Source: Pseudomonadota bacterium (GTDB lineage: Bacteria; Myxococcota_A; Bradymonadia; UBA4248). Taken from it: DNA of 64,000 nucleotides. Position numbers and translations under genes: made by a program. The notes under the pieces were generated by a model, which ran no database searches, had not been told where the DNA came from, and was given only the letters and a program-made list of their open reading frames with translations. Below, one piece after another: positions 13,627-57,404 of the stretch; the stretch's first letter is position 1, and every line of letters starts with the position of its first letter. Location: contig JAFUEE010000105.1 of NCBI GenBank assembly GCA_017464085.1, positions 7,214 to 71,213 of the forward strand, in the 5' to 3' direction.

Positions 13627-13735
13627 TGATTTATATATAGAAAGGCGCTATCCCGTTGGGATACGCGCCTTTTGTGCGCGTCCTATTTCGCATTCGCTCA
13701 ATACGGCCGCGCAACTTTTTAAAAGGAGATGCGCC

Positions 13736-14822: not shown

Positions 14823-14921
14823 TCAAAACAGCGCGGCGACTTTTGCCTCGGCTTCCTCGCGCTTCATGTTTTTTAATTTGCCAGTGAATAAGAATGTTTT
14901 GTTCTCAAAAATGTTTGCCAT
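14823..14921 (-). other. 32-aa ORF with BRCT-like motif (possible gene remnant or small protein)
   Basis: MANIFENKTFLFTGKLKNMKREEAEAKVAALF resembles the start of a LigA-type BRCT domain (K.FV.TG.L..M.R.EA....LG). AAGGTG sits 7 nt upstream. Lies inside a 1.2-kb non-coding, lower-GC island. Confidence 0.25.
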
Positions 14922-18700: not shown

Positions 18701-19172
18701 TCAGCGCCCTGTGTATAACAATTACCGCCTGAACAAGCAGGGCCAGTATGGTGCCGGTGTGGTGCCCGATATTACCGGGCGCTTTATTGCCGGCTCGATC
18801 TGCGGTCAGACCGAAGATGGCCGTCACGTCATCAGCGGCAAGCTCTGCAACCGGGGCACGAAGCCTGTTTCGATGAATCTGCCCGCCACATTCTTCTATT
18901 ATGAAGAAGAAGCTCCGGATCATCGCGGCCAGAAGATCTGCACCTCTTACACCAAGTCGAATGTCGGCGTTGGGGAGTGTGCGCAGGTCGGCTGCGAGAT
19001 CACGGCGGATGAGCTCAAGGCGCTTGAAGGCAAGACTGTTCTGATGGTTTCCAACTTGGACGAAAACGGCTATCCGAGCACAGTCGAATGCAATGCCGAC
19101 AACAACATCGATATGACGACAATCGACAAGTGCGCGTCTGAGGAAGATGCGCCGATCGTGATCGTCAACTGA
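15744..19172 (+). CDS. Large secreted Cys-rich protein with FG-GAP/VCBS repeats, paralog 2
   Basis: ATG at 15744 after GAGGAG. Same architecture as 8050-11421: Cys-rich modules, FG-GAP loops DMDGDGLLE, DVDGNGQPE, DFDSDGLPE, DFDGDGQAE, DIDGDGSAE. The C-terminal ~600 aa is nearly collinear with paralog 1. Confidence 0.8.
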   Translation: MNKYFKILLAGVAVSFFGCDDASDEQQKPEEPKYECLNSSECDSGICVEGKCAKYVGLGDACDSVHLCNEPYECVEGACAEHVVDEPEKPECTKDAECDSGKCQADGTCASVPKGNGKEGDSCGDDAPCDFPLTCDGTCKAIECTEEDQGDCPSGTICENDRCEAIVYLKAGEACVADSSVRVCEGELSCIKGVCGEIVKDGTCETASDCTDAETPVCLPSGKCGAVVEPGGFCNEQYVCPEGFVCEIFCKHIRQKGESCDEEAYDFCEESLACKHNVCVAFEYDLPRGAECNDEYKFCEKSLECVEGACAEYVGEDASCNASEHILCKAGLECIKDVCTPVGGGCSKSSDCLEKDSFCCQSDSCGAKNKCVPYNEEITYDEACRFTTKPGIFEAQVQCRWQPPADAYPKSSKVEMPPLVGHFGNKDGLETVVAFFSYFTRASEPTSDQLLGVIRFINPDTCETLESVRYNLMRHGKNWPAAADMDGDGLLEFLTFDASGHILAFKWNATNKRHEKLWQSKVANKGYYINVFDVDGNGQPEVVVGTTVLDGRTGKTIYEGGALGGYNVAIGIFDNDPTGQAMLVSQKDVLKWNKAKKDWTTVATLPSSLAYKAYADFGTPGATAEDFDYTKLDGFPEIVAGGSSKLHLYALVSNGDGTYGVQTLMSVDGFTTGGPITIGDFDSDGLPEIGVASKGLFGVYDPRCKGYEAGKCADKNVLWERWSQDASSGATGSSLFDFDGDGQAEAVYADECFTRVYEGKSGRVLFSAKRSSGTTYEAPVVADIDGDGSAEILMGSDNNKTCADDTGELINPNSPGKSNCVDPIHEGIRCLDDEDCPTGKGCNKEIGLCICTSDADCNTQIAPGKDTILQQYVCAPPIHPEVGIMTNEKAAKARTMKQPIGTRPDGWKKGDYQVCRATRLTKDIGVGDLMIFKDRLDRWVSSRPLWNQHSYNIINIEDNGRTPTPTQWIWNWLLKNPKQTIVGTNYQRPVYNNYRLNKQGQYGAGVVPDITGRFIAGSICGQTEDGRHVISGKLCNRGTKPVSMNLPATFFYYEEEAPDHRGQKICTSYTKSNVGVGECAQVGCEITADELKALEGKTVLMVSNLDENGYPSTVECNADNNIDMTTIDKCASEEDAPIVIVN

Positions 19173-30837: not shown

Positions 30838-30934
30838 TTCCTGTGCCTATAGGGATTGCGGAAACTGCTGATTTTGTCTAATATAAGCGACCGGTTATGT
30901 TCGAAAATCTTTGGTAATATTGGCATCGGAGGAA

Positions 30935-33900
30935 ATGATGAAAAAGCCGGTCTTTATTTTTCCGCTTCTTTTGGCCTGGGCTTCTGGATGTGCGCTGGAT
31001 ACGGTGAATCGTCCGGAGCTCCTCATCAGTCCGATCGATGACGAGGACCCTTCGGGGCTGTCTGCTGTCTTGCTGGAAGACGATGTCGCGCATGAACGGA
31101 GTTTCAGCTTTTCATTGTATCTGACCAGAAAGCCGTCCTCGGACGTGACGGTTCGCATATCTTCAGATATATCCGGCGAAGTCTCCATCCTGGACGAAGT
31201 GCGCGTGTTTACGCCTGAAAATTACGATATGATTCAGAGCGTGCGCGTCGCAGGCATGATGGACAGCCGTGTGGATGGGGACTGCTCGGTCAGGATCTTG
31301 TTTGATATGAGCTCTGAGGATGCCGTATACGATGGCAGGCGTCTGGAACGAAAAGTGTCGGTCACGGATATTGATAAGGTCGGCATCGAGCTGAGCCATG
31401 ACAGCCTTGAGACAGATGAAAATGGCAAGTCCGTGAATGTTCGCGCGCGCCTGGCCTCTATCCCGTATGCAAGCGTGACCGTGCCGCTGATGCTGAGTGA
31501 TCCGGATGAGGCGGTTCTGTCAGTGGAGCGCCTCGTCATTGAGCCTGAAGCATGGCAGGCTGAGCAGATTGTCACGATCAAGGGCTTGCCGGACAATCGG
31601 AAGGACGGGAATAAGAAGTATCTGCTGGAATTTGGCGCGGCGGAGTCTGAGGATGAGCATTATAGCGGCTTTCAGCTTGATGCTCTGGAATTGACGAATA
31701 TGGATGTGAATCGCGCTGGTGTCGAGGTGACCGCTGAACACTCGCTGGCGACGACAGAGGCGGGCGGGAGCGCCAGCGTGGAAGTGAGCCTTGCATCAGA
31801 GCCGTCTTCGGATGTCACGATGCTCGTGAGCGTCAGCGATGATACAGAGGCGGAGGTGTCTCCCACGGAGATCGTGTTTACGCCGGATAACTGGTATGAG
31901 CGGCAGAAAATCACAGTGACTGGGCGTGATGACAGCGAATCCGACGGCGATCAGTCATTTATGCTCGTGTTCTCCCCGCTGGCATCCCTGGATTTGAATT
32001 ATGGCGGCATCGTGCCGGATCCAATTGAGATGAAGAATATCGACAATGATAAGGCTGGCATTGATATCAGACCTGTGCCGCTGAGCTGCGAGGAAGGCGC
32101 GATGCTCAGGGTCAGCGCGCAGCTTAGGACAATGCCCCAGAATCCCGTCACGCTACGGCCGGTGATTACGGATAGCGATGGCCGAGAGACGGATGAGGCC
32201 TCCATTGCCGGCGATGCTGTCGAGCTTTCCTATGCCCAGGCGGATTATAATCAGCCTCAGGAATTTGATATTCAATGCTTGACCGATGATGTCGTGGATG
32301 GCGATCAGGTCTGGCGTCTGAGCTTCGCTGTCACTTCGGATGGGGCCGATTATAGTGATCCAGACCAGAATTTCTCGGTTGAGGGCAGGACGGTGGATGT
32401 GGATAAAGGCGGATTTGAGGTGCAGTGCGACAGGTACGATATCCAGGAAGGGGAGGAGATATCTTGTCAGGTCGTGCTGAACTCGAAGCCGCAGAACGCT
32501 GTCACGATTCATGTCGAATCATCAGACCAGGAATATGGCGTTCAGGTCAGCGGGGCTCCGGGCATCGTCTTTGAGGCGAATGATCCGGAATGGAATAGCG
32601 GGAAAACGTTTTCATTTATCGGCTCGACAGATGATGTCGTGGATGGCACAAAGAACGTCAGGCTGTCATTTACAAGCGATTCAGAAGACAGCAATTTCTT
32701 AATCGATTCCGAGAATGGCAGAGTGATTGATGTGACTGTGACGGATATCAATGATAATAAAATCGTGATCATGGATGGTTATGATCTGGTTTTGAATGAG
32801 AAAGATATAAGTTTGCATGAGATCAGGCTCAAGCTGCTTGGAAAGCCGGATAAAGATGTGTTTGTGAAGGCAGTTCTTTCGGGGAATGATATAAAAATGT
32901 CAGAACAGATCATGACAATTCATCCGGAAGACTGGAATAAGGAGACTGTGTTTAAATATTCAACAGTAGATAATAGCGTCGCAGATAATGATAGAACGGC
33001 TACGATTGTGTTCGAGACATTATCAAATGACCCGAAATTTAATAATTTAACAGCTAAAAGTGAATTGATTTCAATTATAGATGATGAGACCTCAAATTTG
33101 AAGATGACGGTAAAGAGCTCTATATATAAGGTATCGTGTAAATACAATAACGGGGGAAACAGTAACGGTCCGGTTGGTGAATTGAAGCTCACGCTGAACG
33201 CGCAGCCTAAGAAGGATGTTAAATTTGTGCTGACGCTTCGCGATAAAGATGGCAATGTGCTCACAAAAAATAAAGATGATGTTTCGCTTGGCGATGCAGG
33301 TCGGGCCGTGTTTACGACCAAAAACTGGAACACAGGCATTTCTGTATCAATTTATGCGCCCAATGAATTGTCTAAGCCTGATAAGGCATATTATGAAAAT
33401 GTATATGTGACGGCAGATGTGCTGGATGCCTCAGGCACGGGGTATGAAAATTTTAAATTTGGAAACAGCCAGAGAGTATTTGCATTGCAGGCATTCTGCG
33501 ATCCCAAAGGCTTTGTGTATCAAGGCAAAGCCTCTGAAGTCAGTCTGCCGCGCGGTTATTATGAAATGGAAGTGAAAGGGGCAGGCGGCGGTTCGTACGA
33601 TACGGGGGGGAGCAGCTATTATTCGTATGGCGGCGTCGGCGCGCGGGCGCATGCGGTGTTTGCGCTCAAGCTGGCGCAGAAAGTCTATGTGACTGTCGGC
33701 GGAAAGGGCAGCACGTGTTATAATGGGCGAAGCGGCGGCGGCTATAATGGCGGCTCGTGCGGCAGCTGCGGCCTGACGTTCTGGGGGTATGGCGGCGGCG
33801 GCGCAACCGATATCCGCATCGGGGCGAACAGTTATGCCAGCCGCGTGATCGTGGGCGGCGGCGGCGGCGGCGGCCTTTATATCGATCTGGCAAAATACAA

Positions 33901-34288
33901 GAATACTTCAGGCGCGGGAGCTGGCGGGCAGTATTCTGGAGGCAGCGGCAGGAAAGGCACGGATGCGCACAGCGCGACTTCTGGCGGCAGCCTTAACAGC
34001 TGCAATAATGGCAAGGGCGGATGTGGCTTTGGGGAGCCGTCTGCCAAGGCGGATGGCGTCCGGAGAGGCGGCGGCGGCGGCGGCTGGTTTTCAGGGCTTG
34101 CAGGACAGGATACGAATGTCTCCGGCGCGGGAGGATCCAGCTATATCCATGGCTATACGACCTCGAGCAGCAGGTGTCAGCTCAAGGATACGGTGATCAA
34201 GTATTATACCAACGGAAACTATGGAATCGGGGCCGCGAGGGATACTGACGGTTCCGCGAGCATCAAGGTGTATCCGAAAGAGATATAA
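30935..34288 (+). CDS. Giant lipoprotein with ~8 tandem ~110-aa beta-sandwich repeat domains and Gly-rich C-terminal domain
   Basis: Lipobox WASGC. Repeats share ..V.F.P.NW...Q.I.V.G.DD...DGD... signatures (Calx-beta/cadherin-like). C-terminal ~350 aa is Gly/Ser/Tyr-rich with GGGGGGG runs. The internal segment ~32700-33500 is markedly AT-richer. Confidence 0.65.
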   Translation: MMKKPVFIFPLLLAWASGCALDTVNRPELLISPIDDEDPSGLSAVLLEDDVAHERSFSFSLYLTRKPSSDVTVRISSDISGEVSILDEVRVFTPENYDMIQSVRVAGMMDSRVDGDCSVRILFDMSSEDAVYDGRRLERKVSVTDIDKVGIELSHDSLETDENGKSVNVRARLASIPYASVTVPLMLSDPDEAVLSVERLVIEPEAWQAEQIVTIKGLPDNRKDGNKKYLLEFGAAESEDEHYSGFQLDALELTNMDVNRAGVEVTAEHSLATTEAGGSASVEVSLASEPSSDVTMLVSVSDDTEAEVSPTEIVFTPDNWYERQKITVTGRDDSESDGDQSFMLVFSPLASLDLNYGGIVPDPIEMKNIDNDKAGIDIRPVPLSCEEGAMLRVSAQLRTMPQNPVTLRPVITDSDGRETDEASIAGDAVELSYAQADYNQPQEFDIQCLTDDVVDGDQVWRLSFAVTSDGADYSDPDQNFSVEGRTVDVDKGGFEVQCDRYDIQEGEEISCQVVLNSKPQNAVTIHVESSDQEYGVQVSGAPGIVFEANDPEWNSGKTFSFIGSTDDVVDGTKNVRLSFTSDSEDSNFLIDSENGRVIDVTVTDINDNKIVIMDGYDLVLNEKDISLHEIRLKLLGKPDKDVFVKAVLSGNDIKMSEQIMTIHPEDWNKETVFKYSTVDNSVADNDRTATIVFETLSNDPKFNNLTAKSELISIIDDETSNLKMTVKSSIYKVSCKYNNGGNSNGPVGELKLTLNAQPKKDVKFVLTLRDKDGNVLTKNKDDVSLGDAGRAVFTTKNWNTGISVSIYAPNELSKPDKAYYENVYVTADVLDASGTGYENFKFGNSQRVFALQAFCDPKGFVYQGKASEVSLPRGYYEMEVKGAGGGSYDTGGSSYYSYGGVGARAHAVFALKLAQKVYVTVGGKGSTCYNGRSGGGYNGGSCGSCGLTFWGYGGGGATDIRIGANSYASRVIVGGGGGGGLYIDLAKYKNTSGAGAGGQYSGGSGRKGTDAHSATSGGSLNSCNNGKGGCGFGEPSAKADGVRRGGGGGGWFSGLAGQDTNVSGAGGSSYIHGYTTSSSRCQLKDTVIKYYTNGNYGIGAARDTDGSASIKVYPKEI

Positions 34289-34545
34289 CGACGGGCGTAT
34301 CGCCGAAAGGCGATAGCACGGCGCTGGCGGCGCGTATCGGCCGAAAGGGCGATAGCGCCGCGCTCGAAATGAAATATATATATGTATTAAAATGTAAAAT
34401 TCTGTGTTGTTTTGAAATAAATGATAATATTTAAACGCTTTAAAAAATTATTTTTTTATAAGTGCCCCGACATTTTGCATCTTGCGCGATTTGGGAATAA
34501 CAAGCAAAAATAAGGATGTCTGCAGAAGTGCCGGCGTCTTAGGTA

Positions 34546-35679
34546 TTGTTCCATGGTCCATTTCATTCGGATAGTTTACCACAGATGACAGTCAGCAAAA
34601 TTGTGCGTCTTCCGGCGCATGTCAAAAGCGCTTATGAAGCGATCAGCGCGCCATTTGATTCGTGTTTTGTGCCCAGGGGGTTCCTTTTTCCGGAGTCCCG
34701 TGAGGATCTTGCGCCGTATCGGGAGTTTCCGCTTTCGGAGCCGTTTTATATCTCCCCGCAGAAGCCTTCGGATCAGTCGGTGGACGACATCTTCAAGGTC
34801 AGAACGGATGAGTCGGAGGATGATTCGGACTCGAACTGTTTTGACTCGACGATCTTGCATATCAGCGAGCTCGACGAGCTTCTGCTTGACGTGCAGGCGA
34901 TGGGGATGCAGTACACGATGCATACGCAGATGAGCCTTCGCCGTGACCTGACGTATGATTTTCCGAAGACCTGGGACAAGACGCAGGCGCTTCTGACGGA
35001 TATTCCCGTGTTTTCGGAAGAGCTCTGCCAGTGGCATTACCCGATTTCGACGATGGGGTACAACATCGCGAACACGGATCCGCCGATCGACATCGACACG
35101 TCGCACAATTACCCGAAGCTGTTCGGGTATCTGCCGAACGGCGATATTGCGGTGTACTGGGAGATTGCGGAGATTTTGGTCCGCGAGTTCGGCATCGAGG
35201 TGGACACGATGCTCGCGCGTGTGGACGGGACGCTGATCCTGATGCCCGGTGCTGCGGAGCAGATCAAGGAGATGGCGCCGTGCGACTGCGTGGTGGACAC
35301 GGGGATCGCGGTCGATCCCGGGGATGATGCAGAGCCCGCGATTGCGTTTGCTCGCCAGTGGCTCCAGAAAGAACCGGTCGTGCTCAGGCATGCGACATAT
35401 CCATTTTACAGGCTGATTCTTCCGGTGATACACTGCGAGCTTGACTTCAACCCATACGCCGAGGCAACCTGGGGGGCGTTCGGCTATTCTTCGCCAAGGC
35501 TTTCGGGTTATGAGTTCAAGATTGTCAACAACCCGTTCACGCGCGACGTGCCGATTTTCGCGACGGAGCGCGGCAATGTGGTCGTGTCGCTGAAATTCTA
35601 TGAGCGGCTGAGCGCGCTCTTGAGGCAGTTCGGCATGCCGTTCGATGCGCAGCTGTTCCCCATCCAGCGCATTCCGTGA
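34546..35679 (+). CDS. Hypothetical cytoplasmic protein (first gene of 4-gene operon)
   Basis: 377 aa with no signal peptide and no recognisable motif. Stop overlaps the start of the next gene. An AT-rich (~80% AT) promoter-like tract at 34370-34470 lies upstream. Confidence 0.5.
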   Translation: MFHGPFHSDSLPQMTVSKIVRLPAHVKSAYEAISAPFDSCFVPRGFLFPESREDLAPYREFPLSEPFYISPQKPSDQSVDDIFKVRTDESEDDSDSNCFDSTILHISELDELLLDVQAMGMQYTMHTQMSLRRDLTYDFPKTWDKTQALLTDIPVFSEELCQWHYPISTMGYNIANTDPPIDIDTSHNYPKLFGYLPNGDIAVYWEIAEILVREFGIEVDTMLARVDGTLILMPGAAEQIKEMAPCDCVVDTGIAVDPGDDAEPAIAFARQWLQKEPVVLRHATYPFYRLILPVIHCELDFNPYAEATWGAFGYSSPRLSGYEFKIVNNPFTRDVPIFATERGNVVVSLKFYERLSALLRQFGMPFDAQLFPIQRIP

Positions 35680-35747
35680 CGGGGAGCCGTGTTTCAGTGC
35701 GGCGCGCACGGGGGGCGCCTGAAGACAACAAAAATTCGGAGAGATAC

Positions 35748-37088
35748 ATGTACAGATGCTTAGCAGCCGCACTGATGTTGGTCGCGGGCTTGATGTCCGG
35801 GTGCGGCAATAGCCAGGAAAGTGGCGCGTCACAGAAAGCAGATGCGAAGCCGGAGGCGCAGCAGAAGGCCGAGGTTTTGGCGCAGAAGCCTGAAGAACAG
35901 AAGGCAGCCGATGATGCGCGGAAAGACGAAAAATCTGCCCAGAACGAAGGCGAGGCGCCCGATGAGGCGGCGGAAGCATTTAAGGATGCAGTCCGCGAAG
36001 GCGTTGAGGCTGGCGTGAATGATGTGCTCAATGGCGTGGCGGCGCCTGTCGTGGCCGTGAAGTCGCTTGAGCTCGACGAGAGCGTCGTGAAGGATATCGC
36101 GCGCGTCGGTGTCGCGGAAAAGGCCGATGACCCGAACGTCAATGCGCACCGGATCGATTCGCTCGACTCGCTGAGCGATGCTCAGGCAAAGCTGCTGGAT
36201 TCGATCACCTGGGATGTCGATCCCGAGGTGCTGAATGCCGTGCTCCAGGAAAATGAAGGGCAGCACTTCATGTACAGCGACGAGCTTCACCCGGAGCTTT
36301 TCTACGACACGATCAAGGATATGGGCGGGACGTATATCGGCATCGGCTCTGACCAGGGGTATCTGTTCACGGGGTGGCAGCATCCGACGCTTGCTTTCCT
36401 CGTCGACTACGATCCGTGGATTGTCGTCCAGCACAAGGTATATATGGCATTCTGGCGGTCATGCGAGGACAGCGCGTGCCTTCTGCGCCTGTTTGACGAC
36501 CGCGAAGCCGGGCTGGCGTTCCTGACCGGCGAAGCCGGCATCGCAGCCGGCCTCAGCGACAAGGACACGCAGAAAATCTATCGCGCCGGCCGCATGAGCG
36601 TGGCGAAACGCCTTCGGGCGATACGGAAAATGCCGCAGCCGACGTTCATGAATGACCCGGAGATGTTCGGCTATATCAAAAATCTGATCGAAACCGGACG
36701 CCTGCGCACTTTTCAGGCAAATCTTTTGGGCGATCTTGCGTTTAAATCTGTTGCGGACACGCTCAATGCCTTGGGCGCGAAAGTGACGACGCTGTATCTG
36801 TCGAATGCGGAGCAGTACTGGCCATATTCGAAGCAGTTCAAGGCAAACATGCTCGGTCTTCCGGCGGCGGAGAATGCGCTGATCATGCGGACGAGCGCCT
36901 CGAAGCCGATCAACGAGGATTATCGGTACAGCGTTCAGCCGATGCACGTGTTCAAATCCTGGCTGGAGCATCCCAAGGGCAATAACGTGCGCGCGGTCAC
37001 GAAGCGCGTCCGCGTCAAGGATGCGGAGGATTTCCCGTTTACAGTCGATGACGTGATGCCGCCTGCTGGGGAGGAGGATAAGAAATGA
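35748..37088 (+). CDS. Lipoprotein with charged low-complexity N-terminus and alpha/beta C-terminal domain (hypothetical; weak SAM-MTase-like G-x-G-x-x-x-G)
   Basis: Lipobox LMSGC after GGAGAG. KPEAQQKAEVLAQKPEEQKAADD linker. YIGIGSDQG...AFLVDYD is only weakly methyltransferase-like, so treat as unknown. Confidence 0.5.
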   Translation: MYRCLAAALMLVAGLMSGCGNSQESGASQKADAKPEAQQKAEVLAQKPEEQKAADDARKDEKSAQNEGEAPDEAAEAFKDAVREGVEAGVNDVLNGVAAPVVAVKSLELDESVVKDIARVGVAEKADDPNVNAHRIDSLDSLSDAQAKLLDSITWDVDPEVLNAVLQENEGQHFMYSDELHPELFYDTIKDMGGTYIGIGSDQGYLFTGWQHPTLAFLVDYDPWIVVQHKVYMAFWRSCEDSACLLRLFDDREAGLAFLTGEAGIAAGLSDKDTQKIYRAGRMSVAKRLRAIRKMPQPTFMNDPEMFGYIKNLIETGRLRTFQANLLGDLAFKSVADTLNALGAKVTTLYLSNAEQYWPYSKQFKANMLGLPAAENALIMRTSASKPINEDYRYSVQPMHVFKSWLEHPKGNNVRAVTKRVRVKDAEDFPFTVDDVMPPAGEEDKK

Positions 37089-37981
37089 GACGTGTCGCAT
37101 GGATGATCGGTCTGATGATGATGTTTTCGGGGCTGGCATTTGCACAGGAGCCGTGCCCGTCCGAAGCGCCTGAAATCCAGAAGCCCGCTGACCCGAATGA
37201 GAAGTGCAGGCCGGACCTGACGAATGACGCGCCGGTGCTCTTCGTGTTCCCTGAGGACGACAAGAAGCCCGCAGAAGATGCCGGCAGGAAGCCCGCAGAA
37301 GACAGAAATCCCGATGGCGCGAAGCAAGTCCGCGCATCACAGACGCCTGCGGATGCCGTGCGGAAGCTGCCCGAGACATGCACCTATAAGGCGTATGCCT
37401 GGGACACTAAAAAAAAACGCTCGACCGATCATTTTACCGTTTCCAAGCCCTATCGCGACGTGACCGATGACGAGCGCGACCCGAATGCGCCGCAGTGCAC
37501 GATCTGCAGTGAGGATCAGGTCACGATTGATCCCGCTGAGTTCGGGGTAAAGGCAGATGTGATCCGCATCTGCCATGTGTATGCGCCGCAGGTGCGTCAA
37601 GCGCTCGAGGCGATTGCAAAGTCAGGGGCGTTCGATATCGAAAAGCTCGAGGGATACAGGCCCGGCAGGACGCGCGGAAAAATCGACAAGAACGGCCTGC
37701 GCACAGAGTGGAGCAACCACAGCTTTGGCGCGGCGATCGACATCAATGCGCATCGGAACGCGATATACAGCAGCTGTCCCGATAAAATTGTCGGCCATGC
37801 CTCGGATGTCAAGAACTGCAAAAAAGGGATCGGCGGCGCCTATATGCCGGAAAAACAGCCGCGCGTCTCGATCACCAGGGACAGCGTCGTCTACCGGGAG
37901 ATGACGAAGTTCTGGAAGTGGGGCGGGGAAATCGAGGGGACGACGAAAGACATCATGCATTTTTCGATCACGGGGTATTAG
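37085..37981 (+). CDS. Secreted peptidase M15 family (VanY/D-Ala-D-Ala carboxypeptidase-like)
   Basis: Signal peptide present. Zn-binding motifs SNHSFGAAIDIN (H..G.A.D) and DIMHFS. Start overlaps the upstream stop (ATGA). Confidence 0.65.
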   Translation: MRRVAWMIGLMMMFSGLAFAQEPCPSEAPEIQKPADPNEKCRPDLTNDAPVLFVFPEDDKKPAEDAGRKPAEDRNPDGAKQVRASQTPADAVRKLPETCTYKAYAWDTKKKRSTDHFTVSKPYRDVTDDERDPNAPQCTICSEDQVTIDPAEFGVKADVIRICHVYAPQVRQALEAIAKSGAFDIEKLEGYRPGRTRGKIDKNGLRTEWSNHSFGAAIDINAHRNAIYSSCPDKIVGHASDVKNCKKGIGGAYMPEKQPRVSITRDSVVYREMTKFWKWGGEIEGTTKDIMHFSITGY

Positions 37982-37984
37982 GGG

Positions 37985-38374
37985 ATGTATGTTTCCATAT
38001 TGGCCCTGCCGTTTGTGATGGCTGGCATGAGCGTCGTCAATCTCGCTTTTGGGCCTGCAAGGACGCGGGATATGACGCATCGGGTGGCTGATGTTCTGCG
38101 CGCGTGCGTGCCAGCTCGCGATATCGGGCTTGAGCCTGACGATATGCGTTGCGAGCTGCGCCTGATCGAGCGCTGCAAACGCCCTCCGAGAATTGCCTGC
38201 TTTGAAACGGCGTGCGCATTCGACTTGTGGCTGGCGGCGCACGGGCAGAAAGCTGAGGTCTGTATCGGCAAGCGCATGGTGGGCGGACGGATCCGGATGC
38301 ATGCGTGGGTGGCGACTGATCCGGTGCCTTTTTTTTATGACGGACGTTTCGAAGAGGTCTGGAAAAACCACTGA
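37985..38374 (+). CDS. Transglutaminase-like superfamily small protein (PF13471 / lasso-peptide B2-like fold)
   Basis: 129 aa. RIACFETACAFDLWLAAHGQKAEVCIGKRMVGGRIRMHAWVATDPVPFFYD matches the C...riGv...HAWVe...D pattern of microcin J25 McjB/B2-like Cys proteases. No B1, C or precursor genes nearby. Confidence 0.55.
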   Translation: MYVSILALPFVMAGMSVVNLAFGPARTRDMTHRVADVLRACVPARDIGLEPDDMRCELRLIERCKRPPRIACFETACAFDLWLAAHGQKAEVCIGKRMVGGRIRMHAWVATDPVPFFYDGRFEEVWKNH

Positions 38375-38544
38375 TGCGGCGCCTTTCTTGCGCCTGGGCT
38401 GTATTTGATGCGTACAGAAGGGCTCTCGGGCGGTAAAAAAAATATAAAAGTTGTGTTATCTGAAAATGATGCCTATAAATAGCGCAAGTCAAGCAATGGC
38501 GCGGATTTTAACGCGTTGCGTCATTTCTAGGATGGAGTTTGAAG

Positions 38545-40551
38545 ATGACATTGAATAAGACAGCCGCCGTATTTGCAGCAGCTTGTTTGTTGGCGCTTGG
38601 ATGTGCCGAAGTGAGAGACGCAGATGGTTCGAGCAGCCCGGTGCTCGATCAGGACCAGACGATTCACAAGCCCGGGGAAGGGACTGATCCCGGGCTGACG
38701 CCTTCGAAGCCGGGCAATGACCCGCTCGTGCCAAATCAGCCCACTGACCCGGCACCTTCGGATCCGGTCGAACCGGAAGATCCTGCGCCCGTCGGCCCCA
38801 CGGATCCTGTCGATCCCGATGGCCCCACGGATCCTGTCGATCCCGAGGACCCCACGGATCCTGAAGATCCCGAAGACCCGGTAGACCCTGTCGATCCGGT
38901 CCCCGGCGATGGCGATCCGATCAACCGCGAAGTTGACGGCTATCCCGTCCTTCCGCTGACGTATGCGCCCTATACGACGCTTCAGATCGCGCACAAGCCG
39001 ACAATCGGCACGTCGATTCACCCGGTCGATTATGTCCTGGAGCTGATCTGGAATCGCGACCTGAAGGCCACGCAGAAGGACAAGTATGCGTATTATGGTC
39101 TTGGATATAAGGATGCGGAAGCCGAGCCTTGGATCCTCCGCGAGGAACTGCTTCGCATCTCCGATCCGAATTTCAGTCACAAGGGCAAAAGCCTCGCGTA
39201 TTTTTGGCAAGTCTCTGACCCGCAGCTCATCGACGAGGAGAGCCCCTGCCGCATGGAAGGCGTGACCATCGCGCCGTTTGTCGTCGCCAGCGCTTATCGC
39301 CCGCAGGGCATTTATTCGACGCACATGTTCGACCTGCACGTCCAGAGCGCGCGCCGGATTTCCGATATCAGCACGCGGCCGTTCGATTTCGCGCTCGTGA
39401 CCGGCGATATCGCAGACAATGCCCAGAAAAATGAGCATGCGTGGTTCCGCCGAATGATGGGCGGCGGAGTCCTCAATCCCGACAGCGGCAAGGATGACGA
39501 TCCCGTTCCCGGGCCCGGCAATGATTTCAACGATCCGTTCTATTCTCCGGGAATCGGCGATATTCCCTGGTATCCGGCAATCGGCAACCACGATCACCTC
39601 TATATGGGGTTCATGCCGTTCAACGACGTGATCCAGAATGCGTGCATGGGGTCGGAAGTCGTGGATCTGTTTGAGTTCATACCTATTCTTGCGTCACATG
39701 GCTATCGCGAGGGGTATCGCAACGGTTTCCAGGACGGCTCGAAGCCCGATGCGGACGTGGATGTGACGGGCCCGACTGTCGCGGATGCTGACCGCATGCT
39801 TCTGGACAAGGCTGCGACGCTCCAGCAGTTTTATGAGGCGGAAGGCCTTCCTAAAGGGCATGGCCTGGACCCCGAGCGCATCAAGACGGGGTGGGGGTAT
39901 TATTCGGTGCATCCGATTCCCGGCAAGCCGATCCGCCTCATCACGCTCGACACGAACAGCGGGACTTGGTCCGAGGCCAATATGACGCGCGAGCAGCTTG
40001 ACTGGCTCTCCGGGGAGATCGATGAAGCGCGCGCAAAGAAAGAGCTCGTCATACTTCAGTCTCACCACGGCACGGACATGTTTGGCGGCGCCGTGACGCA
40101 GAACGATTTCCAGAAGCTTCTCGCGTCATATTCCGGCGTGATCGTCCACATCACCGGCCATGGGCATAATAACGATTCCCATGTCTATATTGACGGCACC
40201 AAGGGGTATTGGGAAGTCATGCTCGCGTCTGTCGTCGATTTCCCGTCGCAGTCGCGCATCTTTGAAATCGTGCACGAGGGAAAGGGCTATATCGCGATCT
40301 ATATCACGAACATCGATCCGAACGCGCCCAAGGGGACATTCGTGGACACGGCGCTGCACTATGCGGCGGCGCGCAAATATTTCGCAACATCCAAAGATCC
40401 GGCAGCCGACTGGGAGGCCGAAAAAGCTCATCGGAACCTGATCCTTCGCACGCGAGTTTCTGAGGATATCTATAAAAATCTCGAAAAATATGAGTGGTCA
40501 GACACAATCGAATCAGAGGAGGTGCTCAAGAATTTGAAGTTTGCGCCGTGA
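38545..40551 (+). CDS. Calcineurin-like metallophosphoesterase lipoprotein with P/D-rich linker
   Basis: ATG 38545 (the track starts at an upstream TTG). Lipobox ALGC. PTDPVDPDGPTDPVDPEDPTDPEDPEDP linker. Phosphoesterase motifs GDIADN, GNHD, GHGH. Confidence 0.75.
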   Translation: MTLNKTAAVFAAACLLALGCAEVRDADGSSSPVLDQDQTIHKPGEGTDPGLTPSKPGNDPLVPNQPTDPAPSDPVEPEDPAPVGPTDPVDPDGPTDPVDPEDPTDPEDPEDPVDPVDPVPGDGDPINREVDGYPVLPLTYAPYTTLQIAHKPTIGTSIHPVDYVLELIWNRDLKATQKDKYAYYGLGYKDAEAEPWILREELLRISDPNFSHKGKSLAYFWQVSDPQLIDEESPCRMEGVTIAPFVVASAYRPQGIYSTHMFDLHVQSARRISDISTRPFDFALVTGDIADNAQKNEHAWFRRMMGGGVLNPDSGKDDDPVPGPGNDFNDPFYSPGIGDIPWYPAIGNHDHLYMGFMPFNDVIQNACMGSEVVDLFEFIPILASHGYREGYRNGFQDGSKPDADVDVTGPTVADADRMLLDKAATLQQFYEAEGLPKGHGLDPERIKTGWGYYSVHPIPGKPIRLITLDTNSGTWSEANMTREQLDWLSGEIDEARAKKELVILQSHHGTDMFGGAVTQNDFQKLLASYSGVIVHITGHGHNNDSHVYIDGTKGYWEVMLASVVDFPSQSRIFEIVHEGKGYIAIYITNIDPNAPKGTFVDTALHYAAARKYFATSKDPAADWEAEKAHRNLILRTRVSEDIYKNLEKYEWSDTIESEEVLKNLKFAP

Positions 40552-42568: not shown

Positions 42569-42754
42569 ATGAAAAGATGTTTTCTTCTTTTGTTTGTGTT
42601 GTTTGCGGGCGTGTCGGCGTGCAGTGATGACACGGAGACGGTGACGATGTGTGACTGCCGTGAGGATGAATATTGTCGTGACGACAAATGTTACGAGACG
42701 GATGCCGATATCGCGCCGGCTCCCGATGAGGGTGAAACGCAAAATGACAATTGA
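42569..42754 (+). CDS. Small secreted lipoprotein (61 aa, hypothetical)
   Basis: MKRCFLLLFVLFAGVSAC signal with lipobox. Cys-rich acidic mature peptide. Overlaps the coaD start by ~11 nt. Confidence 0.4.
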   Translation: MKRCFLLLFVLFAGVSACSDDTETVTMCDCREDEYCRDDKCYETDADIAPAPDEGETQNDN

Positions 42755-43271
42755 CACGGGGGCGTCAGAGGCTTTTGGGCGGCAGGATGACCGTCTGGCG
42801 GTGTATGCTGGCACGTTTGATCCGCCGACGTTCGGCCATATCGATCTGATCCGTCGCGCATCGAGGTCGTTTGGGCATGTCATCGCCGCGATCGGCGTCA
42901 ATCCGGGCAAGAAAGTGATGTTCTCGACGGATGAACGGCTGGGGTTTCTTCGGACGGCGCTTGCCGATCTTCCGAATGTGTCATGCAGTGCGTATTCGGG
43001 GCTTCTCGTCGATTACTGCCGCCAGGTCAATGCGCGTGTCATCATTCGCGGCCTCAGGGCGGTCGCGGACTTTGAATATGAATTTCAGATGGCGCTTGCA
43101 AACCGAGATCTGGCGCCAGAGATTGAGACAGTTTTTCTGATCGCGGCGACGGACAAGCTCTTTCTGTCGAGCTCTGTGGTCAAAGAAATCGCGTCATACG
43201 GGAGAGATGTTTCGCAGTATGTGCCCCCGTGTGTCGCAGAGGCGATTCATAATTATTATCATAAGGAATGA
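42744..43271 (+). CDS. coaD: Phosphopantetheine adenylyltransferase
   Basis: AVYAGTFDPPTFGHIDLI (T/HxGH nucleotidyltransferase motif). ~175 aa. The ATG at 42744 is chosen over upstream in-frame Mets. Confidence 0.85.
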   Translation: MTIDTGASEAFGRQDDRLAVYAGTFDPPTFGHIDLIRRASRSFGHVIAAIGVNPGKKVMFSTDERLGFLRTALADLPNVSCSAYSGLLVDYCRQVNARVIIRGLRAVADFEYEFQMALANRDLAPEIETVFLIAATDKLFLSSSVVKEIASYGRDVSQYVPPCVAEAIHNYYHKE

Positions 43272-43274
43272 GCG

Positions 43275-45335
43275 ATGAATGCAGCGCAGTACCTCGAGAA
43301 GCGATACGGTCTACTTTGTGAGCTATGCGATCAGGCGGCATCCGGCGCGCCAGGTGCTGCGGGGCGATATCTGGAAGGCGTTGCCGCGCTTGACGGGGCT
43401 TGTGATGGCGCGGTGCCGTTCCGGCAGGTCGTTGCGGACTTTCGGCTGACTGCGTTCGAGGCTGATGTGGTGTTCCTTTCGCTTGCGCCGTCTTTGGATG
43501 CGAACTTTCGCCAGAAGATTGCGAAACTTCGCCAGAATTTTGCGTTTTCTCAGCCCGATGTCGGTCTGGCGCTTGAGCTGTTCAGCCCGGATTTTGCGTC
43601 AAAGATTGAGAATCGTCAGGCATTTGCGCCTGCCGGCGCGCTGATCGCGCATCATCTGATCGAGCTCATGCCGAAATTTGGCGCGGAGACGCAGCTTCAG
43701 GATATGGTGCTGGTGCTGCCGTCGCGCGTGGAGTGTCATCTTCTCGGCATCGCGGCTGACCTCAATCTGGACGGCTTCAGCCGGCTGTTCTACCCCAGGA
43801 CGACAGTCGATCAGGTCATGATGGGGGAGAAGTACAAAAAGCAGATCATGACGCTCGTGACGCAGTACGAGAATTGTCTGAAGCTCAAGGATGCGTGTCA
43901 TTTTGAGGAGATCGGCGGCGGCGGCCGCAACCTGATTTTGCTGTTCAGCGGGCCATCCGGGACGGGCAAGACCTTGATGAGCCAGGCGGTGGCCAATGCG
44001 CTTGGTCGCCCGCTGCTGCTCGTGGATGCGCATGAGCTTGAGGCGAAGCGCAGTCTTGAGGACAATCTTGACCTTTTGATGCGCGAGGCACGGCTTCAGC
44101 GCGCGGTGCTCCTGTTTGATGACTGCGAGCTGATCTTTGCGTCGAGGACGCAGGGCAACCGGGATCTGCCGCTGCTGCTTGCGGCGCTTGATGCATACGA
44201 AGGAATCGTCATATTGACGACGAATCTGCCCGGGGCGCTCGATCCTGCGCTCGACAGGCGCGTGACGCTGCAGATTGATTTTGAAATTCTCCCCGTCCGG
44301 CTTCGCGAACAGATCTGGCGGCTGCATCTGCCTCAGAATGTCAGGCTCTCTGAAGATGTCGATCTGCACAGGCTTGCGGACAAGTATGAGTTTTCCGGCG
44401 GGACGATCCGGAACTCGGTGGCTGTGGCGCTCAATCGCGCGCTCGCGGAATGTGACGGCGGCGAACTCGTCCTGACCATGCACACGCTTGAGGAGGCGGC
44501 CAAAACACAGATCAGGAACAAGATAAGGAAGCTGGCGGACAAGACGCTGACGACGCTGACGCTGGATGACCTGATTCTGCCCAAAAAAGTCAAGCATCAG
44601 ATCAACAGTCTGATTGCATCTGTGCGCAATCGCCGCACGATCTTTGAGGAATGGGGATTTGGGGAAAAGATCACCAAAGGGCGCGGCATCTGCGCGCTGT
44701 TTCGCGGTGATTCAGGCACGGGCAAGACTTTGTCGGCGGAGATCATTGCGAACGAGCTCGGCATGACGCTTTATCGCGTGCGCATTCCGGCGATTGTCTC
44801 TAAATATGTGGGGGAGACGGAGAAGAATCTTGAAAAGTGTTTTCGTGAAGCAGCCGCAAGCGGCGCGCTTCTGCTCTTTGACGAGGCGGATTCGATTTTT
44901 TCCAAGCGCACCGAAGTCAAGGATTCGAACGACAGATATTCCAACATGGAGGTCAATCTGCTCTTGCAGGAAGTCGAGCGTTTTGAAGGTGTCGTGATTT
45001 TGACGACAAATCTGGATGCGGCGATTGATGATGCATTTGAGCGCCGATTAAATCACAAGATCGATTTCCCGTTCCCAGAGGCGAGATATCGCGCCAAGAT
45101 CTGGAAGAGCCTGCTGCCGGCGACCGCCCCGCTTGCGGAGGGGATAGATTTCGAGACGCTCGGCCGGGATCTGGAGCTTTCTGGCGGCTGTATCAAGAAC
45201 TCGGTGGTTCGGGCGGCGTATCGCGCTGCGGAGCGCAATATTCCGATAGACATGGATCTGCTCGAGGCAGCCGGCATTCAGGAATACCGTGAGATGGGCA
45301 AGCTTGTTCCCAATCGGAACAATCCGTGGGACTGA
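43275..45335 (+). CDS. Tandem AAA+ ATPase (two classic-clade AAA domains) with ~220-aa N-terminal domain
   Basis: Walker A GPSGTGKT and GDSGTGKT. Walker B LLFDDCE and LLFDEAD. Both domains followed by TTNL...DPALDRR / DDAFERR arginine-finger regions. 686 aa. Confidence 0.8.
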   Translation: MNAAQYLEKRYGLLCELCDQAASGAPGAAGRYLEGVAALDGACDGAVPFRQVVADFRLTAFEADVVFLSLAPSLDANFRQKIAKLRQNFAFSQPDVGLALELFSPDFASKIENRQAFAPAGALIAHHLIELMPKFGAETQLQDMVLVLPSRVECHLLGIAADLNLDGFSRLFYPRTTVDQVMMGEKYKKQIMTLVTQYENCLKLKDACHFEEIGGGGRNLILLFSGPSGTGKTLMSQAVANALGRPLLLVDAHELEAKRSLEDNLDLLMREARLQRAVLLFDDCELIFASRTQGNRDLPLLLAALDAYEGIVILTTNLPGALDPALDRRVTLQIDFEILPVRLREQIWRLHLPQNVRLSEDVDLHRLADKYEFSGGTIRNSVAVALNRALAECDGGELVLTMHTLEEAAKTQIRNKIRKLADKTLTTLTLDDLILPKKVKHQINSLIASVRNRRTIFEEWGFGEKITKGRGICALFRGDSGTGKTLSAEIIANELGMTLYRVRIPAIVSKYVGETEKNLEKCFREAAASGALLLFDEADSIFSKRTEVKDSNDRYSNMEVNLLLQEVERFEGVVILTTNLDAAIDDAFERRLNHKIDFPFPEARYRAKIWKSLLPATAPLAEGIDFETLGRDLELSGGCIKNSVVRAAYRAAERNIPIDMDLLEAAGIQEYREMGKLVPNRNNPWD

Positions 45336-45336
45336 G

Positions 45337-46389
45337 ATGCTGTATGCGCTTTTAAACAGGCTGATCCGATATGCTGTGAATCATGGCGTGCCGCCAGAGC
45401 GGATCTTGTCGCGCGCGCGCGCGTGCGGCATCTTGCCTTATCTGTATGCAGGGATTCGTCAGAATCATATCTTGTGTTCGGAGATGGGCTTGCCGGAAGC
45501 CTTGTTGAATCGCCAGATTTCGGCATTTCGGATAGAGCAGACGGCTCGTTTGGGGCTTTGGTATTATTCGCTCGGGGAGATTGTCCGTGCGATCGGGGAA
45601 GAGCATATCGTGCTCAAGGGCGCGCCATTGGGGCAGGTGCTGATGTCGGATGCGCTTTGGCGCGGCACTTCGGATATCGACATTTGGGTGCCGTATGACC
45701 AGCGCGAGCATGTGCAGAAATGCTGTCAGTCTCTCGGGTATGAAGTGGGGGCCGAGCCGCATCTCTGGGCGACGAATCAGATGATTCTCAAGCACAAAAG
45801 GCTTGTGCCCGTTGAGATACATTGGGCGCTTGCGCCGCAGCCCTGGATTTCTCCGTCATTTGAGGAAGCCTTTGCGCGTTCGCGAATGATTGATTCCGCG
45901 CGCGGGCAGGCCGTTCGGATCTTGGGCGATGCGGATCTTTACTTGAATCTTCTCGTGCATGCGCATCAGCATTATTTTTCGCTCAAGACACTGTGCGATC
46001 TCGCGATTGCCCAGGAAAAGCTTGATAAGCCCGAAGCGCTTCTCGCGGCATGTCATCTTCGGAAGCTTGACAGATTTGTCGTGGATCTGTTCGGCGCGCT
46101 TCTTTCGGAAGGGGGAGGGGCGAAGTCGTATCTGGCGCATCTCTGGTTTGATTCGCTTCTGTCGGATACCCGTCGCGGGACAATGGTGTTTGCCGAAGGG
46201 GATGCGCGCTATGCCGCGCCAGGCGTTGCGCTTCGCGCGATATCCATGTGTCTGCTGGATGGGACTGCGATTTCGGCGGATGCAGCGCTTCAGGTCATCT
46301 TTTGCGGTCCGCATTCCGTGGGGCGGATCTGCCATGCGCCCTATCGCGCGTTGCGTCGGGTGTGCGGGCCGGTCATCGGCATTGAATGA
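45337..46389 (+). CDS. Nucleotidyltransferase-fold protein (PF14907-like uncharacterised NTase)
   Basis: HIVLKGAPLGQVLMSDALWRGTSDIDIWVPYDQ...LGYEV...VEIHWAL fits the G-S...D.D / h.H pattern of the minimal NTase fold. Start is 2 nt after the AAA+ stop. Confidence 0.6.
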   Translation: MLYALLNRLIRYAVNHGVPPERILSRARACGILPYLYAGIRQNHILCSEMGLPEALLNRQISAFRIEQTARLGLWYYSLGEIVRAIGEEHIVLKGAPLGQVLMSDALWRGTSDIDIWVPYDQREHVQKCCQSLGYEVGAEPHLWATNQMILKHKRLVPVEIHWALAPQPWISPSFEEAFARSRMIDSARGQAVRILGDADLYLNLLVHAHQHYFSLKTLCDLAIAQEKLDKPEALLAACHLRKLDRFVVDLFGALLSEGGGAKSYLAHLWFDSLLSDTRRGTMVFAEGDARYAAPGVALRAISMCLLDGTAISADAALQVIFCGPHSVGRICHAPYRALRRVCGPVIGIE

Positions 46390-46496
46390 GGGGATTTACC
46401 CCGGACGGCTCTTAGAAAAATTGGCATTCTGTAGGGAAATGTGTTATTATTTTAATCTCGCATGTGCGAGTGGGATAAGAACTTTAGGAGGAAAAC

Positions 46497-46916
46497 GTGG
46501 ATAAGCTTCAGGTGCTTCAAGACGCAGAAAAAAAAGGTGGCAAAGCGCGACGTGATGCCATCGAAAAACTGATGATTTTTGCCCGTGAAAAAGGGTGCAA
46601 TATCGAAGCTGGTGGCGGTCGCATCGGCGGTATCAATTTCCGCTATGGCGGTATCGGTTATGCCATTATGGATATCAGTACGGAAGGTGATGTCAAGCTC
46701 TATGCGCAGCCTCATCCGAACAAAACTGCCCCGGAAGCGCTTAGTAACACGATCAACAAATATCTGGCCGATAACGATGAAAAGCTCAAACTGAAGAGTC
46801 ATCCGATTAACTGTCACGGCCTGCTCAACCAGAAAGTTGAGGAGATTGAGCGCTCTGAGTTGATCAGTTTCTTTGAAGTCGCGCTCAAGGCGATCAAGGA
46901 TACGTATTATTCCTGA
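46497..46916 (+). CDS. Hypothetical small protein (139 aa), lower-GC
   Basis: GTG start after TAGGAGGAAAAC. Gly-rich loop GGGRIGGINFRYGGIGYA. Followed by terminator hairpin 46937-46964. Confidence 0.5.
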   Translation: MDKLQVLQDAEKKGGKARRDAIEKLMIFAREKGCNIEAGGGRIGGINFRYGGIGYAIMDISTEGDVKLYAQPHPNKTAPEALSNTINKYLADNDEKLKLKSHPINCHGLLNQKVEEIERSELISFFEVALKAIKDTYYS

Positions 46917-55805: not shown

Positions 55806-57404
55806 TCACTGCCTGGGGATGGTGATGGCGACTTTGAGGTGCTGGCTCTGGTCGAGCGCAGGCTCGCTGGGCAGCGATCCGAAGACCTTGAGGATGCAAG
55901 TCGTCGCGCTCTGAGAGAGCGAGGAGATCTTGTTGTCTTCGTTGCCGATTTCGCGCAGCGACCCGGTGATTTCGCGTCCAAAGCCGGTGCCGTTGAGCGG
56001 CTGGCTGACGAGCAGGAGCGCGCCGTGAGGCGCGTCGCCTTTGGCGATGCATTTGCGGAGGTCTGGAAGTTTCGCGGTGACGGCGGCTTTCCACGCGGAA
56101 TGCGCGTCTTCGGGGACGTTTTTGAAGCGGAATGGGCCGATCGTGAGTTCGTCCATGCGGCTTTTGGTGCGAATCTCTGCGGCTGCGGTTTTGAATGCGG
56201 CTGGTGTCAGGCTGTCGAATTTCCTGAACCACGCGCCGAGATGCGCATGCGCGAGCGCGCTTCGGTGCACGCGGTCGTAGTGTATCGCGCCGAGGAGGCG
56301 GATGAGCTGCTTGGTGTAATCTTCGGCCGAGAGGATCTTGTCAAAGAGATCCGAGAGCGCGCTTGCGTCGTCGGGCTGCGCGCTTGCGCTGAACGGAAGC
56401 CAGGTGAGATTTTTGAGCGCGCCTTTGATCGGCATGCCGTAATGCGCCAGGACGGCTTCCTGAATATCCGTTCTGAGGTTTGTGTACAGGCTTGCCAGGC
56501 GATACATCTGGTCGGCCTGCTCGATTTTCCACAGGTCTGCAGAAAGGTCGTTCTGCGTCTCGTCCATAAAAGCGAGTATCTTTTGATGCGTGTCGTTGCT
56601 CTTGGGATTGGAGAGACGGCTCAGATAGACGAGCTGTTTTTCGATATCCCGGCCGGCGTCGCCCGATTTCCAGAGCAGCCGGAGCGCGGAGATGCATGAT
56701 TTCTGGGAATCCGAAACTTTGGCTGCTTCAAGCGGGGAGCCGGGCGCATCGCCGTAAGTTTTATGGATGTCGCCGAAACAGGCTTCGGCTGCAATCTGCC
56801 AGTCAGCTTTTTCGTCCGAAGTGACGATGAACGGATAGAACGCGGTGACTTCGTCCGCGACATGGGCGCGGAAAAGCGTTTCGTCATGCAGGACATAGAA
56901 GCCGGGTTCAAGCGGTGCATCGAGCGTGATTTCCGAGAAGCCGGCTTCCGGATCCAGCGACCGCACCTTGGCCGAAAGCGATTTGCCGGGAAGCCAGGCA
57001 GTGTTGGTATTGTCCACTCGGGCATAAGGCTCAGTGGTCGCCGTGGCGATGCCCCGGAACTGGGTGATCTGAAGCTGTTCGGCGTGCAGCGCTTCGCTGA
57101 GCACGGAAAATTCAGACGATCCGGCAGGCAGTTTTGTGCCCGCAGGCTTGGCAAAGCCAAACCCGCGTTCCGCATTCGTGGGCATCAGCAATCCAGTATC
57201 GCCGCGCTCGATATGGACAAATTCCCCATTCGAGCAGAGGTAGGCATCCGGGGCTGGCGGCAGGCCGTGCACGGAGGATTCGACGGCGGCTTCGGCTTCT
57301 GTTTCGGCAGGCTGAGCCTGTTCTGGGTGATCCGAAATCGTCCGCGAGCAGGCGAATGCAAGGAGCACGGTGCACAGGATTGGAAAGAATGGCTTGAAAC
57401 TCAT
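55806..57404 (-). CDS. Lipoprotein (hypothetical, 532 aa)
   Basis: Lipobox AFAC. No recognised motif. Start overlaps the stop of the upstream L,D-transpeptidase gene (operon). Confidence 0.5.
   Translation of the reverse strand: MSFKPFFPILCTVLLAFACSRTISDHPEQAQPAETEAEAAVESSVHGLPPAPDAYLCSNGEFVHIERGDTGLLMPTNAERGFGFAKPAGTKLPAGSSEFSVLSEALHAEQLQITQFRGIATATTEPYARVDNTNTAWLPGKSLSAKVRSLDPEAGFSEITLDAPLEPGFYVLHDETLFRAHVADEVTAFYPFIVTSDEKADWQIAAEACFGDIHKTYGDAPGSPLEAAKVSDSQKSCISALRLLWKSGDAGRDIEKQLVYLSRLSNPKSNDTHQKILAFMDETQNDLSADLWKIEQADQMYRLASLYTNLRTDIQEAVLAHYGMPIKGALKNLTWLPFSASAQPDDASALSDLFDKILSAEDYTKQLIRLLGAIHYDRVHRSALAHAHLGAWFRKFDSLTPAAFKTAAAEIRTKSRMDELTIGPFRFKNVPEDAHSAWKAAVTAKLPDLRKCIAKGDAPHGALLLVSQPLNGTGFGREITGSLREIGNEDNKISSLSQSATTCILKVFGSLPSEPALDQSQHLKVAITIPRQ

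Follow-up and report, generated by a model that had tools for sequence, protein, structure and literature searches.

A Bradymonadia operon that appears to join an envelope lipoprotein-peptidase pair with an orphan protein and a stand-alone lasso B2-like protease

We analysed an operon of four genes on the + strand of a 64,000-nucleotide (nt) stretch of DNA, hereafter the window, from a bacterium of the Bradymonadia (labelled Pseudomonadota; assembly GCA_017464085.1, contig JAFUEE010000105.1, positions 7,214 to 71,213). The first gene, G1 (34585-35679), encodes an orphan protein of 364 amino acids (aa) without a signal peptide, which is the recurrent partner of the protease encoded at the other end of the operon. 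It is followed by the genes of a lipoprotein of the DUF7790 / LIC_10091 (LipL40) family (35748-37088), of a secreted LAS-type zinc peptidase of the Peptidase_M15_4 (VanY-like) family, here M15 (37085-37981), and of B2, a stand-alone B2-like transglutaminase-fold cysteine protease (MEROPS C96) of 129 aa (37985-38374). Comparison with related loci shows that the operon, as judged by gene content, joins two separable modules. The best explanation, which we hold with moderate confidence, is a composite operon in which an envelope module, DUF7790-M15, stands together with a cytoplasmic module, G1 and B2, in which B2 would act on or with G1. Most likely B2 cleaves, or works together with, G1.

The evidence comes from about 90 related loci, which were collected by exact-protein look-ups, a scan of a genome collection with a DUF7790 profile and a scan of metagenomes with a G1 profile, and were annotated with profiles built iteratively from the proteins of the window and of a relative. 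The closest loci are from metagenome-assembled genomes (MAGs) of uncultured gut, rumen and termite-gut bacteria that carry the labels Proteobacteria, Myxococcota or Bradymonadia, which places the window in an uncultured, gut-associated member of the Bradymonadia (Myxococcota), relatives of predatory myxobacteria. In 35 of the 59 loci from Myxococcota/Bradymonadia genomes DUF7790 is followed directly downstream by M15, often with overlapping stop and start codons, and only about 10 of these 35 also hold B2 or G1. By its distribution DUF7790-M15 is an independent and widespread Myxococcota pair, usually found without a B2 protease. G1 and B2 are confined to the clade nearest the window, where three layouts are seen. 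Type A loci hold G1, DUF7790, M15 and B2 only, with G1 co-directional or divergent (the window, L011-L015, L017, L077 and L079). Type B loci have genes of a PqqD and of an HPr-kinase-like protein beside G1 and B2 (L009/L010/L019/L088, L020, L026, L074 and L089); their gene orders vary, and DUF7790 and/or M15 are present wherever the contig reaches far enough. Type C loci are compact G1-PqqD-HPr-kinase-like-B2 operons with neither DUF7790 nor M15 (L071, L072 and L090). Both modules are found at one locus in at least four further MAGs, and in L074 the start of B2 overlaps the stop of G1. Conservation of the four-gene set in relatives, proposed as a check in the initial annotation, was seen in the type A loci, while in others the modules are separate or rearranged. 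What is informative is that the rearrangements by which types A, B and C differ have left G1 and B2 together.

The PqqD of the relatives matches PF05402 with 40-42 bits, and its best-scoring model is that of lasso PqqD (E 3e-10). The kinase-like protein has a GTGKST P-loop and weak, sub-threshold matches to HprK_rel_A, Hpr_kinase_C and ScmC. In the subclade of the window, G1 and B2 stand around DUF7790-M15 with no local PqqD or kinase; tblastn with the proteins of the relatives found neither in the 64 kb (best E for PqqD 0.2). Because the sets of the relatives carry PqqD, its absence is a feature of the locus in this subclade and not of the system. In L009/L010 (L009 13603-16341) the kinase-like gene is separated from B2 by an insertion of three genes, one for a 443-aa protein that has an HExxH motif and an acidic N-terminus, the others for a pair of paralogous lipoproteins (called as 226 and 160 aa); this insert was not found in other type B loci. 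A short motif that recurs after B2 in type A relatives was considered as a tRNA and rejected, as it is not one.

The initial annotation had described an unknown protein, a lipoprotein, an M15 peptidase and a PF13471 protein as tightly coupled genes with overlaps. The gene set itself is confirmed, as all four open reading frames (ORFs) lie on the + strand and are called identically on three independent public metagenome contigs that encode an identical B2 protein. The coupling holds for DUF7790 and M15, the genes of which share an ATGA overlap at 37085-37088, and for B2, the ATG of which (37985) lies 3 nt past the stop of M15. It does not extend to G1 and DUF7790: their overlap requires a GTG start at 35676, whereas the start on the public contigs is ATG 35748, which has GGAGAG upstream, opens the lipoprotein signal MYRCLAAALMLVAGLMSGC and leaves a gap of 68 nt after G1. 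Alignment to homologs places the start of G1 at ATG 34585.

This layout could also be read as a single four-protein module for peptidoglycan or peptide processing, in which B2 would process M15, the lipoprotein (for example, the long low-complexity N-terminal linkers) or a peptide derived from peptidoglycan, and G1 would be an accessory. With its start 3 nt past the M15 stop, B2 is expected to be co-transcribed with M15; the order DUF7790-M15-B2 is kept in at least nine type A loci, L016 has this same order without G1, and the PqqD, kinase, B2 and G1 genes of type B still adjoin DUF7790-M15. However, most DUF7790-M15 pairs are without B2, and at three loci G1-PqqD-kinase-B2 stands without DUF7790 and M15. 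Further, B2 has no signal peptide, and its homologs share neither a conserved signal peptide nor a transmembrane helix, the N-terminal hydrophobic stretch of B2 being occupied by polar and charged residues in them, so that exported substrates would be in another compartment unless cleaved before export. On balance, we regard a single module as improbable. The suggestion that the partners of the protease are M15 and the two unknown proteins is right in that they share its operon, but the primary partner appears to be G1, and M15 pairs with DUF7790. Direct support for a role of the cysteine protease in peptidoglycan processing was not found, B2 lacking a signal peptide and M15 and the lipoprotein being exported.

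To return to the composite operon, both proteins of the envelope module could be placed in families. The lipoprotein matches PF25046 (DUF7790) with 207.5 bits against a cut-off of 23, and has a signal peptide with the lipobox LMSGC followed by a low-complexity linker. The AlphaFold2 model of the protein has a predicted local distance difference test score (pLDDT) of 76, exceeding 90 over most of the conserved domain, and Foldseek matched it to PDB 6ULO, an uncharacterised Leptospira protein (E 3e-21, template modelling score 0.75-0.83 on the target); its resemblance to the Rossmann-type methyltransferase fold is weak. The Pfam match, the lipobox and the 6ULO fold make it a member of the DUF7790/LipL40 family. 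Its score with NF047518 (LIC_10091) is 146.6 bits, and as the equivalog cut-off of 350 is missed, it belongs to the same superfamily and is not the Leptospira equivalog. LIC10091 itself is LipL40, a putative outer-membrane lipoprotein that adhesion assays have employed as a control that does not bind (PMC2935396, PMC2889836). M15 matches PF13539 (Peptidase_M15_4) with 36.7 bits (cut-off 25) and has the Sec-type signal MRRVAWMIGLMMMFSGLAFA. In 37 homologs its zinc-ligand motifs SxHxxGxAxD (S210-x-H212-x-x-G-x-A-x-D219) and D289-x-M-H292-F-S show a conservation of at least 90%. Six cysteines are also conserved in these homologs. The Pfam score together with the His/Asp/His zinc ligands places the protein in Peptidase M15_4. 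Sequence searches for a solved structure of M15 gave chance matches only. VanY-like LAS zinc peptidases are D,D-carboxypeptidases and L-Ala-D-Glu endopeptidases acting on peptidoglycan. DUF7790 and M15 are an exported, translationally coupled pair that would probably act on peptidoglycan peptide stems in the envelope, with the lipoprotein as the membrane-anchored partner of the peptidase, be it a regulator, a scaffold or a self-protection factor.

B2 matches PF13471 (Transglut_core3) with 38.6 bits, above the cut-off of 26, so the 129-aa protein came through the check that the initial annotation had named for it. The C...HAWV...D signature noted there is present in the form C...IGKR...HAWV...D; C72, E74, H106, A107, W108 and F117 are invariant across 15 B2 homologs, but the Asp is not. 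The Pfam score and the invariant Cys and His support the assignment to MEROPS C96 / PF13471. With the NCBIfam model of lasso B2 proteins (NF033537, lasso_biosyn_B2; cut-off 33) the B2 of the window scores 30.7 bits, just below the cut-off, and its L009 ortholog 38.8 bits, above it. The protein consists of the protease domain only (129 aa) with no recognition element (RRE) fused to it, and searches for a solved structure with the single sequence and with a profile gave chance matches only.

A canonical lasso cluster combines such a protease with a cyclase C (PF00733), a PqqD-like RRE (B1) and a short precursor, and it had been claimed that the locus has none of these; none was found in the 64-kb window. 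PF00733 and PF05402 are absent both from the window ORFs scanned with Pfam and from the precomputed annotation of the contig, and with no HPr-kinase-like gene either, a canonical lasso cluster in the window was rejected. For precursors, small ORFs (12-110 aa) were clustered across 11, then 6 related loci. No small intergenic ORF was conserved across these loci, although such a search could miss a precursor that is very short or highly divergent. Small-ORF families that looked conserved were rejected as precursors, being alternative frames of flanking conserved genes or PqqD, and the search for short ORFs that had been suggested yielded, in type B and C loci, PqqD as the only conserved ORF below 110 aa. 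Neither a PF00733 cyclase nor a short precursor was found within +/-10 kb of about 15 distinct loci holding B2 with PqqD and kinase, type C included.

These results bear on the possibility that B2 is a displaced piece of an ordinary lasso pathway, or of another pathway for peptides made on the ribosome and modified after translation (RiPPs), with the cyclase, PqqD, kinase and precursor encoded elsewhere, B2 working in trans and its place after M15 accidental. The B2 orthologs of relatives do pass the lasso B2 model, they have a lasso-type PqqD and an HPr-kinase homolog as neighbours in a paeninodin-like manner (PMC8498205), and the modules clearly move relative to each other between genomes. 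However, the lack of a cyclase and precursor around those loci and in the window, and the first-gene position that G1 always holds in the B2-PqqD-kinase loci, make a displaced lasso pathway unlikely in our view. Two further candidates were dismissed. G1, DUF7790, M15, B2 and the PqqD, kinase and B2 of relatives gave no PADLOC match at E <= 0.01, and an anti-phage defence system was rejected. A PF14907 nucleotidyltransferase 7 kb downstream (45289-46389) was considered as an 'N'-type lasso partner and set aside, since it belongs to another operon and no relative has it near the cluster. In the lasso clusters of Firmicutes, B2 proteases occur with nucleotidyltransferases, some of which are fused to B2. 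The gene lies in an apparent operon (42651-46916) of CoaD, a double-AAA ATPase (CDC48/IteA-like), the PF14907 protein (NTP_transf_5, 94 bits) and a 139-aa orphan.

Of the four genes, B2 evolves fastest, with 35-61% identity across type A loci. Its ratio of nonsynonymous to synonymous substitution rates (dN/dS), calculated against an 88%-identical relative, is 0.26, about five times that of the adjacent M15 segment (0.046). The gene is thus under purifying selection, maintained yet fast-evolving. It is very doubtful that B2, and perhaps G1, are decaying, functionless passengers after a loss of PqqD and kinase: the fast evolution of B2 relative to G1 and M15, its score just under the NCBIfam cut-off and its varying third catalytic residue would fit such remnants, but all type A loci examined have an intact ORF, Cys72 and the His106-Ala-Trp motif do not vary and the dN/dS shows purifying selection.

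G1 itself had no match in Pfam (17 members, E <= 10), NCBIfam or PADLOC, and a profile search among 1.84 billion representative proteins found only 8 clusters of the family at 50% identity. It is the best conserved of the four proteins (69-90% identical across type A relatives) and is conserved along its full length in locus types A, B and C; no region of relaxed conservation was seen when sequences from loci with and without PqqD/kinase were compared. The AlphaFold2 model has a pLDDT of 57, with only the C-terminal half moderately confident (about residues 190-364, with a stretch of low confidence near 290-309), and a Foldseek search of the model against PDB gave nothing below E 0.19. No G1 was found in viral contigs. 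In L075/L076 (2962-11077) a 66%-identical G1 homolog (P0063, in 189 blocks of the collection) has no B2, PqqD or kinase nearby and follows directly after phage-tail-like baseplate genes (GPW_gp25, Baseplate_J and Tail_P2_I) and three unannotated ORFs, a context that hints at a role of its own for G1, which might be that of a cargo or an accessory in a contractile tail-like apparatus. In L080 (3237-6325) DUF7790 on the - strand adjoins a divergent G1 on the + strand, with no M15 or B2 in the remaining 3.2 kb, which adds a variant that has lipoprotein and G1 together and neither peptidase.

In the composite operon, G1 and B2 would be the locally retained half of the cytoplasmic set G1 - PqqD - HPr-kinase-like - B2, and B2 would be an active Cys/His endopeptidase working on or with G1 in the cytoplasm. 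G1 would be either a protein substrate cleaved by B2 or a new partner enzyme or scaffold in the place of the cyclase. A substrate is favoured by where G1 stands in the operon, by its being an orphan and by the lack of any small precursor; its high conservation along the full length and its occurrence without B2 favour an enzyme or scaffold. In the subclade of the window B2 and G1 would work without a locally encoded PqqD or kinase, and both modules, being under one putative promoter, would be co-expressed. Between B2 and the M15 module we see a link by predicted co-transcription, and anything beyond that is speculation, such as a G1-derived product that acts on the cell wall with M15 and the lipoprotein giving self-protection. 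A more far-reaching possibility, which we advance tentatively, is that G1-PqqD-HPr-kinase-like-B2 is an undescribed maturation system of Bradymonadia, in which the lasso trio is reused without a cyclase on or with G1, and which in gut lineages has been wired into an envelope peptidoglycan-peptidase operon in a form independent of RRE and kinase.

Several observations weigh against this composite explanation or limit it. The genes that flank the type A loci (PfkB, two BrxC/D-like ATPases, TrpRS and EamA) are syntenic, and because this synteny is long-range, their common gene order partly reflects shared ancestry and is not independent evidence of linkage. Although G1 is seen beside B2 in three different arrangements, it also occurs without B2 within 10 kb (L070, L075/76 and its lineage, L078 and L080-L085), and since such loci exist and L016 has B2 without G1, the partnership is frequent, not obligatory. 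The conservation of G1, 69-90% over all 360 residues and above the 35-61% of B2, is unlike that of RiPP precursors and suits an enzyme or structural protein better than a substrate. The third catalytic residue of B2 is variable, with an acidic residue 12-13 positions past the His in most, not all, of the 15 homologs. C96 proteases need a recognition element for efficient cleavage (PMC10885120); known lasso B2 proteases depend on an RRE and none is encoded locally here. Genes for PqqD and the kinase may lie elsewhere in this genome.

The operon is preceded by an AT-rich intergenic tract (34370-34470, no strand assigned), for which a promoter of about 80% AT had been proposed. The composition is borne out (81% AT against 44% across the whole window, one of two such 100-nt tracts in the 64 kb), but the promoter is not: a scan for sigma-70 consensus promoters found 2, with 2.4 expected in shuffled sequence. 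As the scan did no better than shuffled sequence, the tract upstream of G1 is a promoter candidate by composition and position only. A terminator scan likewise gave no excess over shuffled sequence, and no Rfam family of riboswitches or small RNAs matched in the leader region. The stretch from the upstream gene's stop to the AT tract contains two similar GC-rich hairpin-forming copies (34290-34364; tatcgcc-gaaa-ggcgata type, direct repeats D1/D2 and inverted repeat I2). They have no T-run and may be a terminator or a protein-binding element.

Upstream of the operon, at 30911-34288, is a 1125-aa lipoprotein, the C-terminal 245 residues of which match PF12810 (98.9 bits), the ALK/LTK glycine-rich domain that is known chiefly from receptor kinases of animals; relative to the close relative L011, it is an insertion between a TSP3-repeat protein and G1. 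Downstream of B2, at 38539-40551, a 670-aa lipoprotein with a Pro/Asp-rich linker is related to TIGR03768/TIGR03767 metallophosphoesterases (175 bits, below the cut-off); in type A relatives the genes in this position are PfkB, the two BrxC/D-like ATPases, TrpRS and EamA, not this lipoprotein. The regions 8050-19172 and 57401-59689 are rich in large exported proteins, namely a pair of lipoproteins, each of about 1100 aa, with FG-GAP repeats, a protein containing four stretches of disintegrin domain (PF00200) and a YkuD L,D-transpeptidase of 762 aa. Large exported proteins around the operon would fit a surface-active, possibly predatory lifestyle.

To our knowledge, work on C96 (B2) proteases, PqqD-type recognition elements and HPr-kinase homologs has dealt with them almost exclusively as enzymes of lasso peptides. 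What would be new here is a conserved PqqD/kinase/B2 set without a cyclase or short precursor, headed by the well-conserved orphan G1, and our search of the literature library available found no paper describing DUF7790 or such a cyclase-less set. If real, it would be a second use for the leader-peptidase machinery and would offer a defined four-gene system for laboratory reconstitution. A B2 under purifying selection without a local RRE, as in the window, bears on the RRE-free function of C96 proteases. For the LipL40 family we know of a solved structure and of no role; the pairing of DUF7790 with M15 is a first genomic clue to the function of the family and points to an envelope partner of a peptidoglycan peptidase. 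These results are from uncultured Bradymonadia of gut and rumen, a little-studied group with predatory bacteria among its relations. Practical impact hinges on experiments.

Four known systems are comparable. The envelope module resembles VanY-like, Peptidase_M15_4 LAS zinc peptidases in its PF13539 match, its SxHxxGxAxD and C-terminal His motifs and its Sec signal, but M15 here has an extra conserved N-terminal region of about 100 residues with a C...CxxC...C pattern, and its gene is obligately coupled to that of a DUF7790 lipoprotein. The lipoprotein is like LipL40 (LIC10091) of Leptospira interrogans and 6ULO in Pfam family, lipoprotein signal and fold, while the myxobacterial proteins differ in having a long low-complexity linker and in being coupled to an M15 peptidase. 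The HPr-rel-A system of NCBIfam/TIGRFAMs, which consists of the HprK-related kinase A (TIGR04352) and PqqD_rel_X (TIGR04353), is likewise a pairing of a PqqD-family and an HPr-kinase-like protein that stands apart from canonical lasso clusters. The best NCBIfam match of the relatives' kinase-like protein is TIGR04352, with 35.4 bits against a cut-off of 200, and their PqqD scores 14.5 bits with TIGR04353 (cut-off 35); scores so far below the cut-offs mean that they are not HPr-rel-A members. G1 and the linkage of DUF7790 with M15 are absent from that system, and neither of its genes is in the window. Split-B lasso clusters with an HPr-kinase, of the paeninodin/pseudomycoidin type, contain A, B1 (PqqD), B2 (the C96 protease), C, D, K and sometimes N. 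In paeninodin-type clusters the leader is bound by PqqD and taken off by the C96 protease, while phosphorylation of the precursor is the task of the HPr-kinase homolog (PMC8498205, PMC10885120). The B2 of the window is likewise a PF13471/C96 protein with conserved Cys and His, and the loci of relatives carry the B1/B2/K trio as PqqD, B2 and an HPr-kinase-like P-loop protein. In contrast to those clusters, there is no cyclase C, ABC exporter, isopeptidase or short precursor, and the 360-aa orphan G1 comes first; the window also lacks B1 and K, and its B2 is embedded among exported envelope proteins. By analogy, the closest functional counterpart of the locus would be that half of a split-B lasso pathway which processes the leader.

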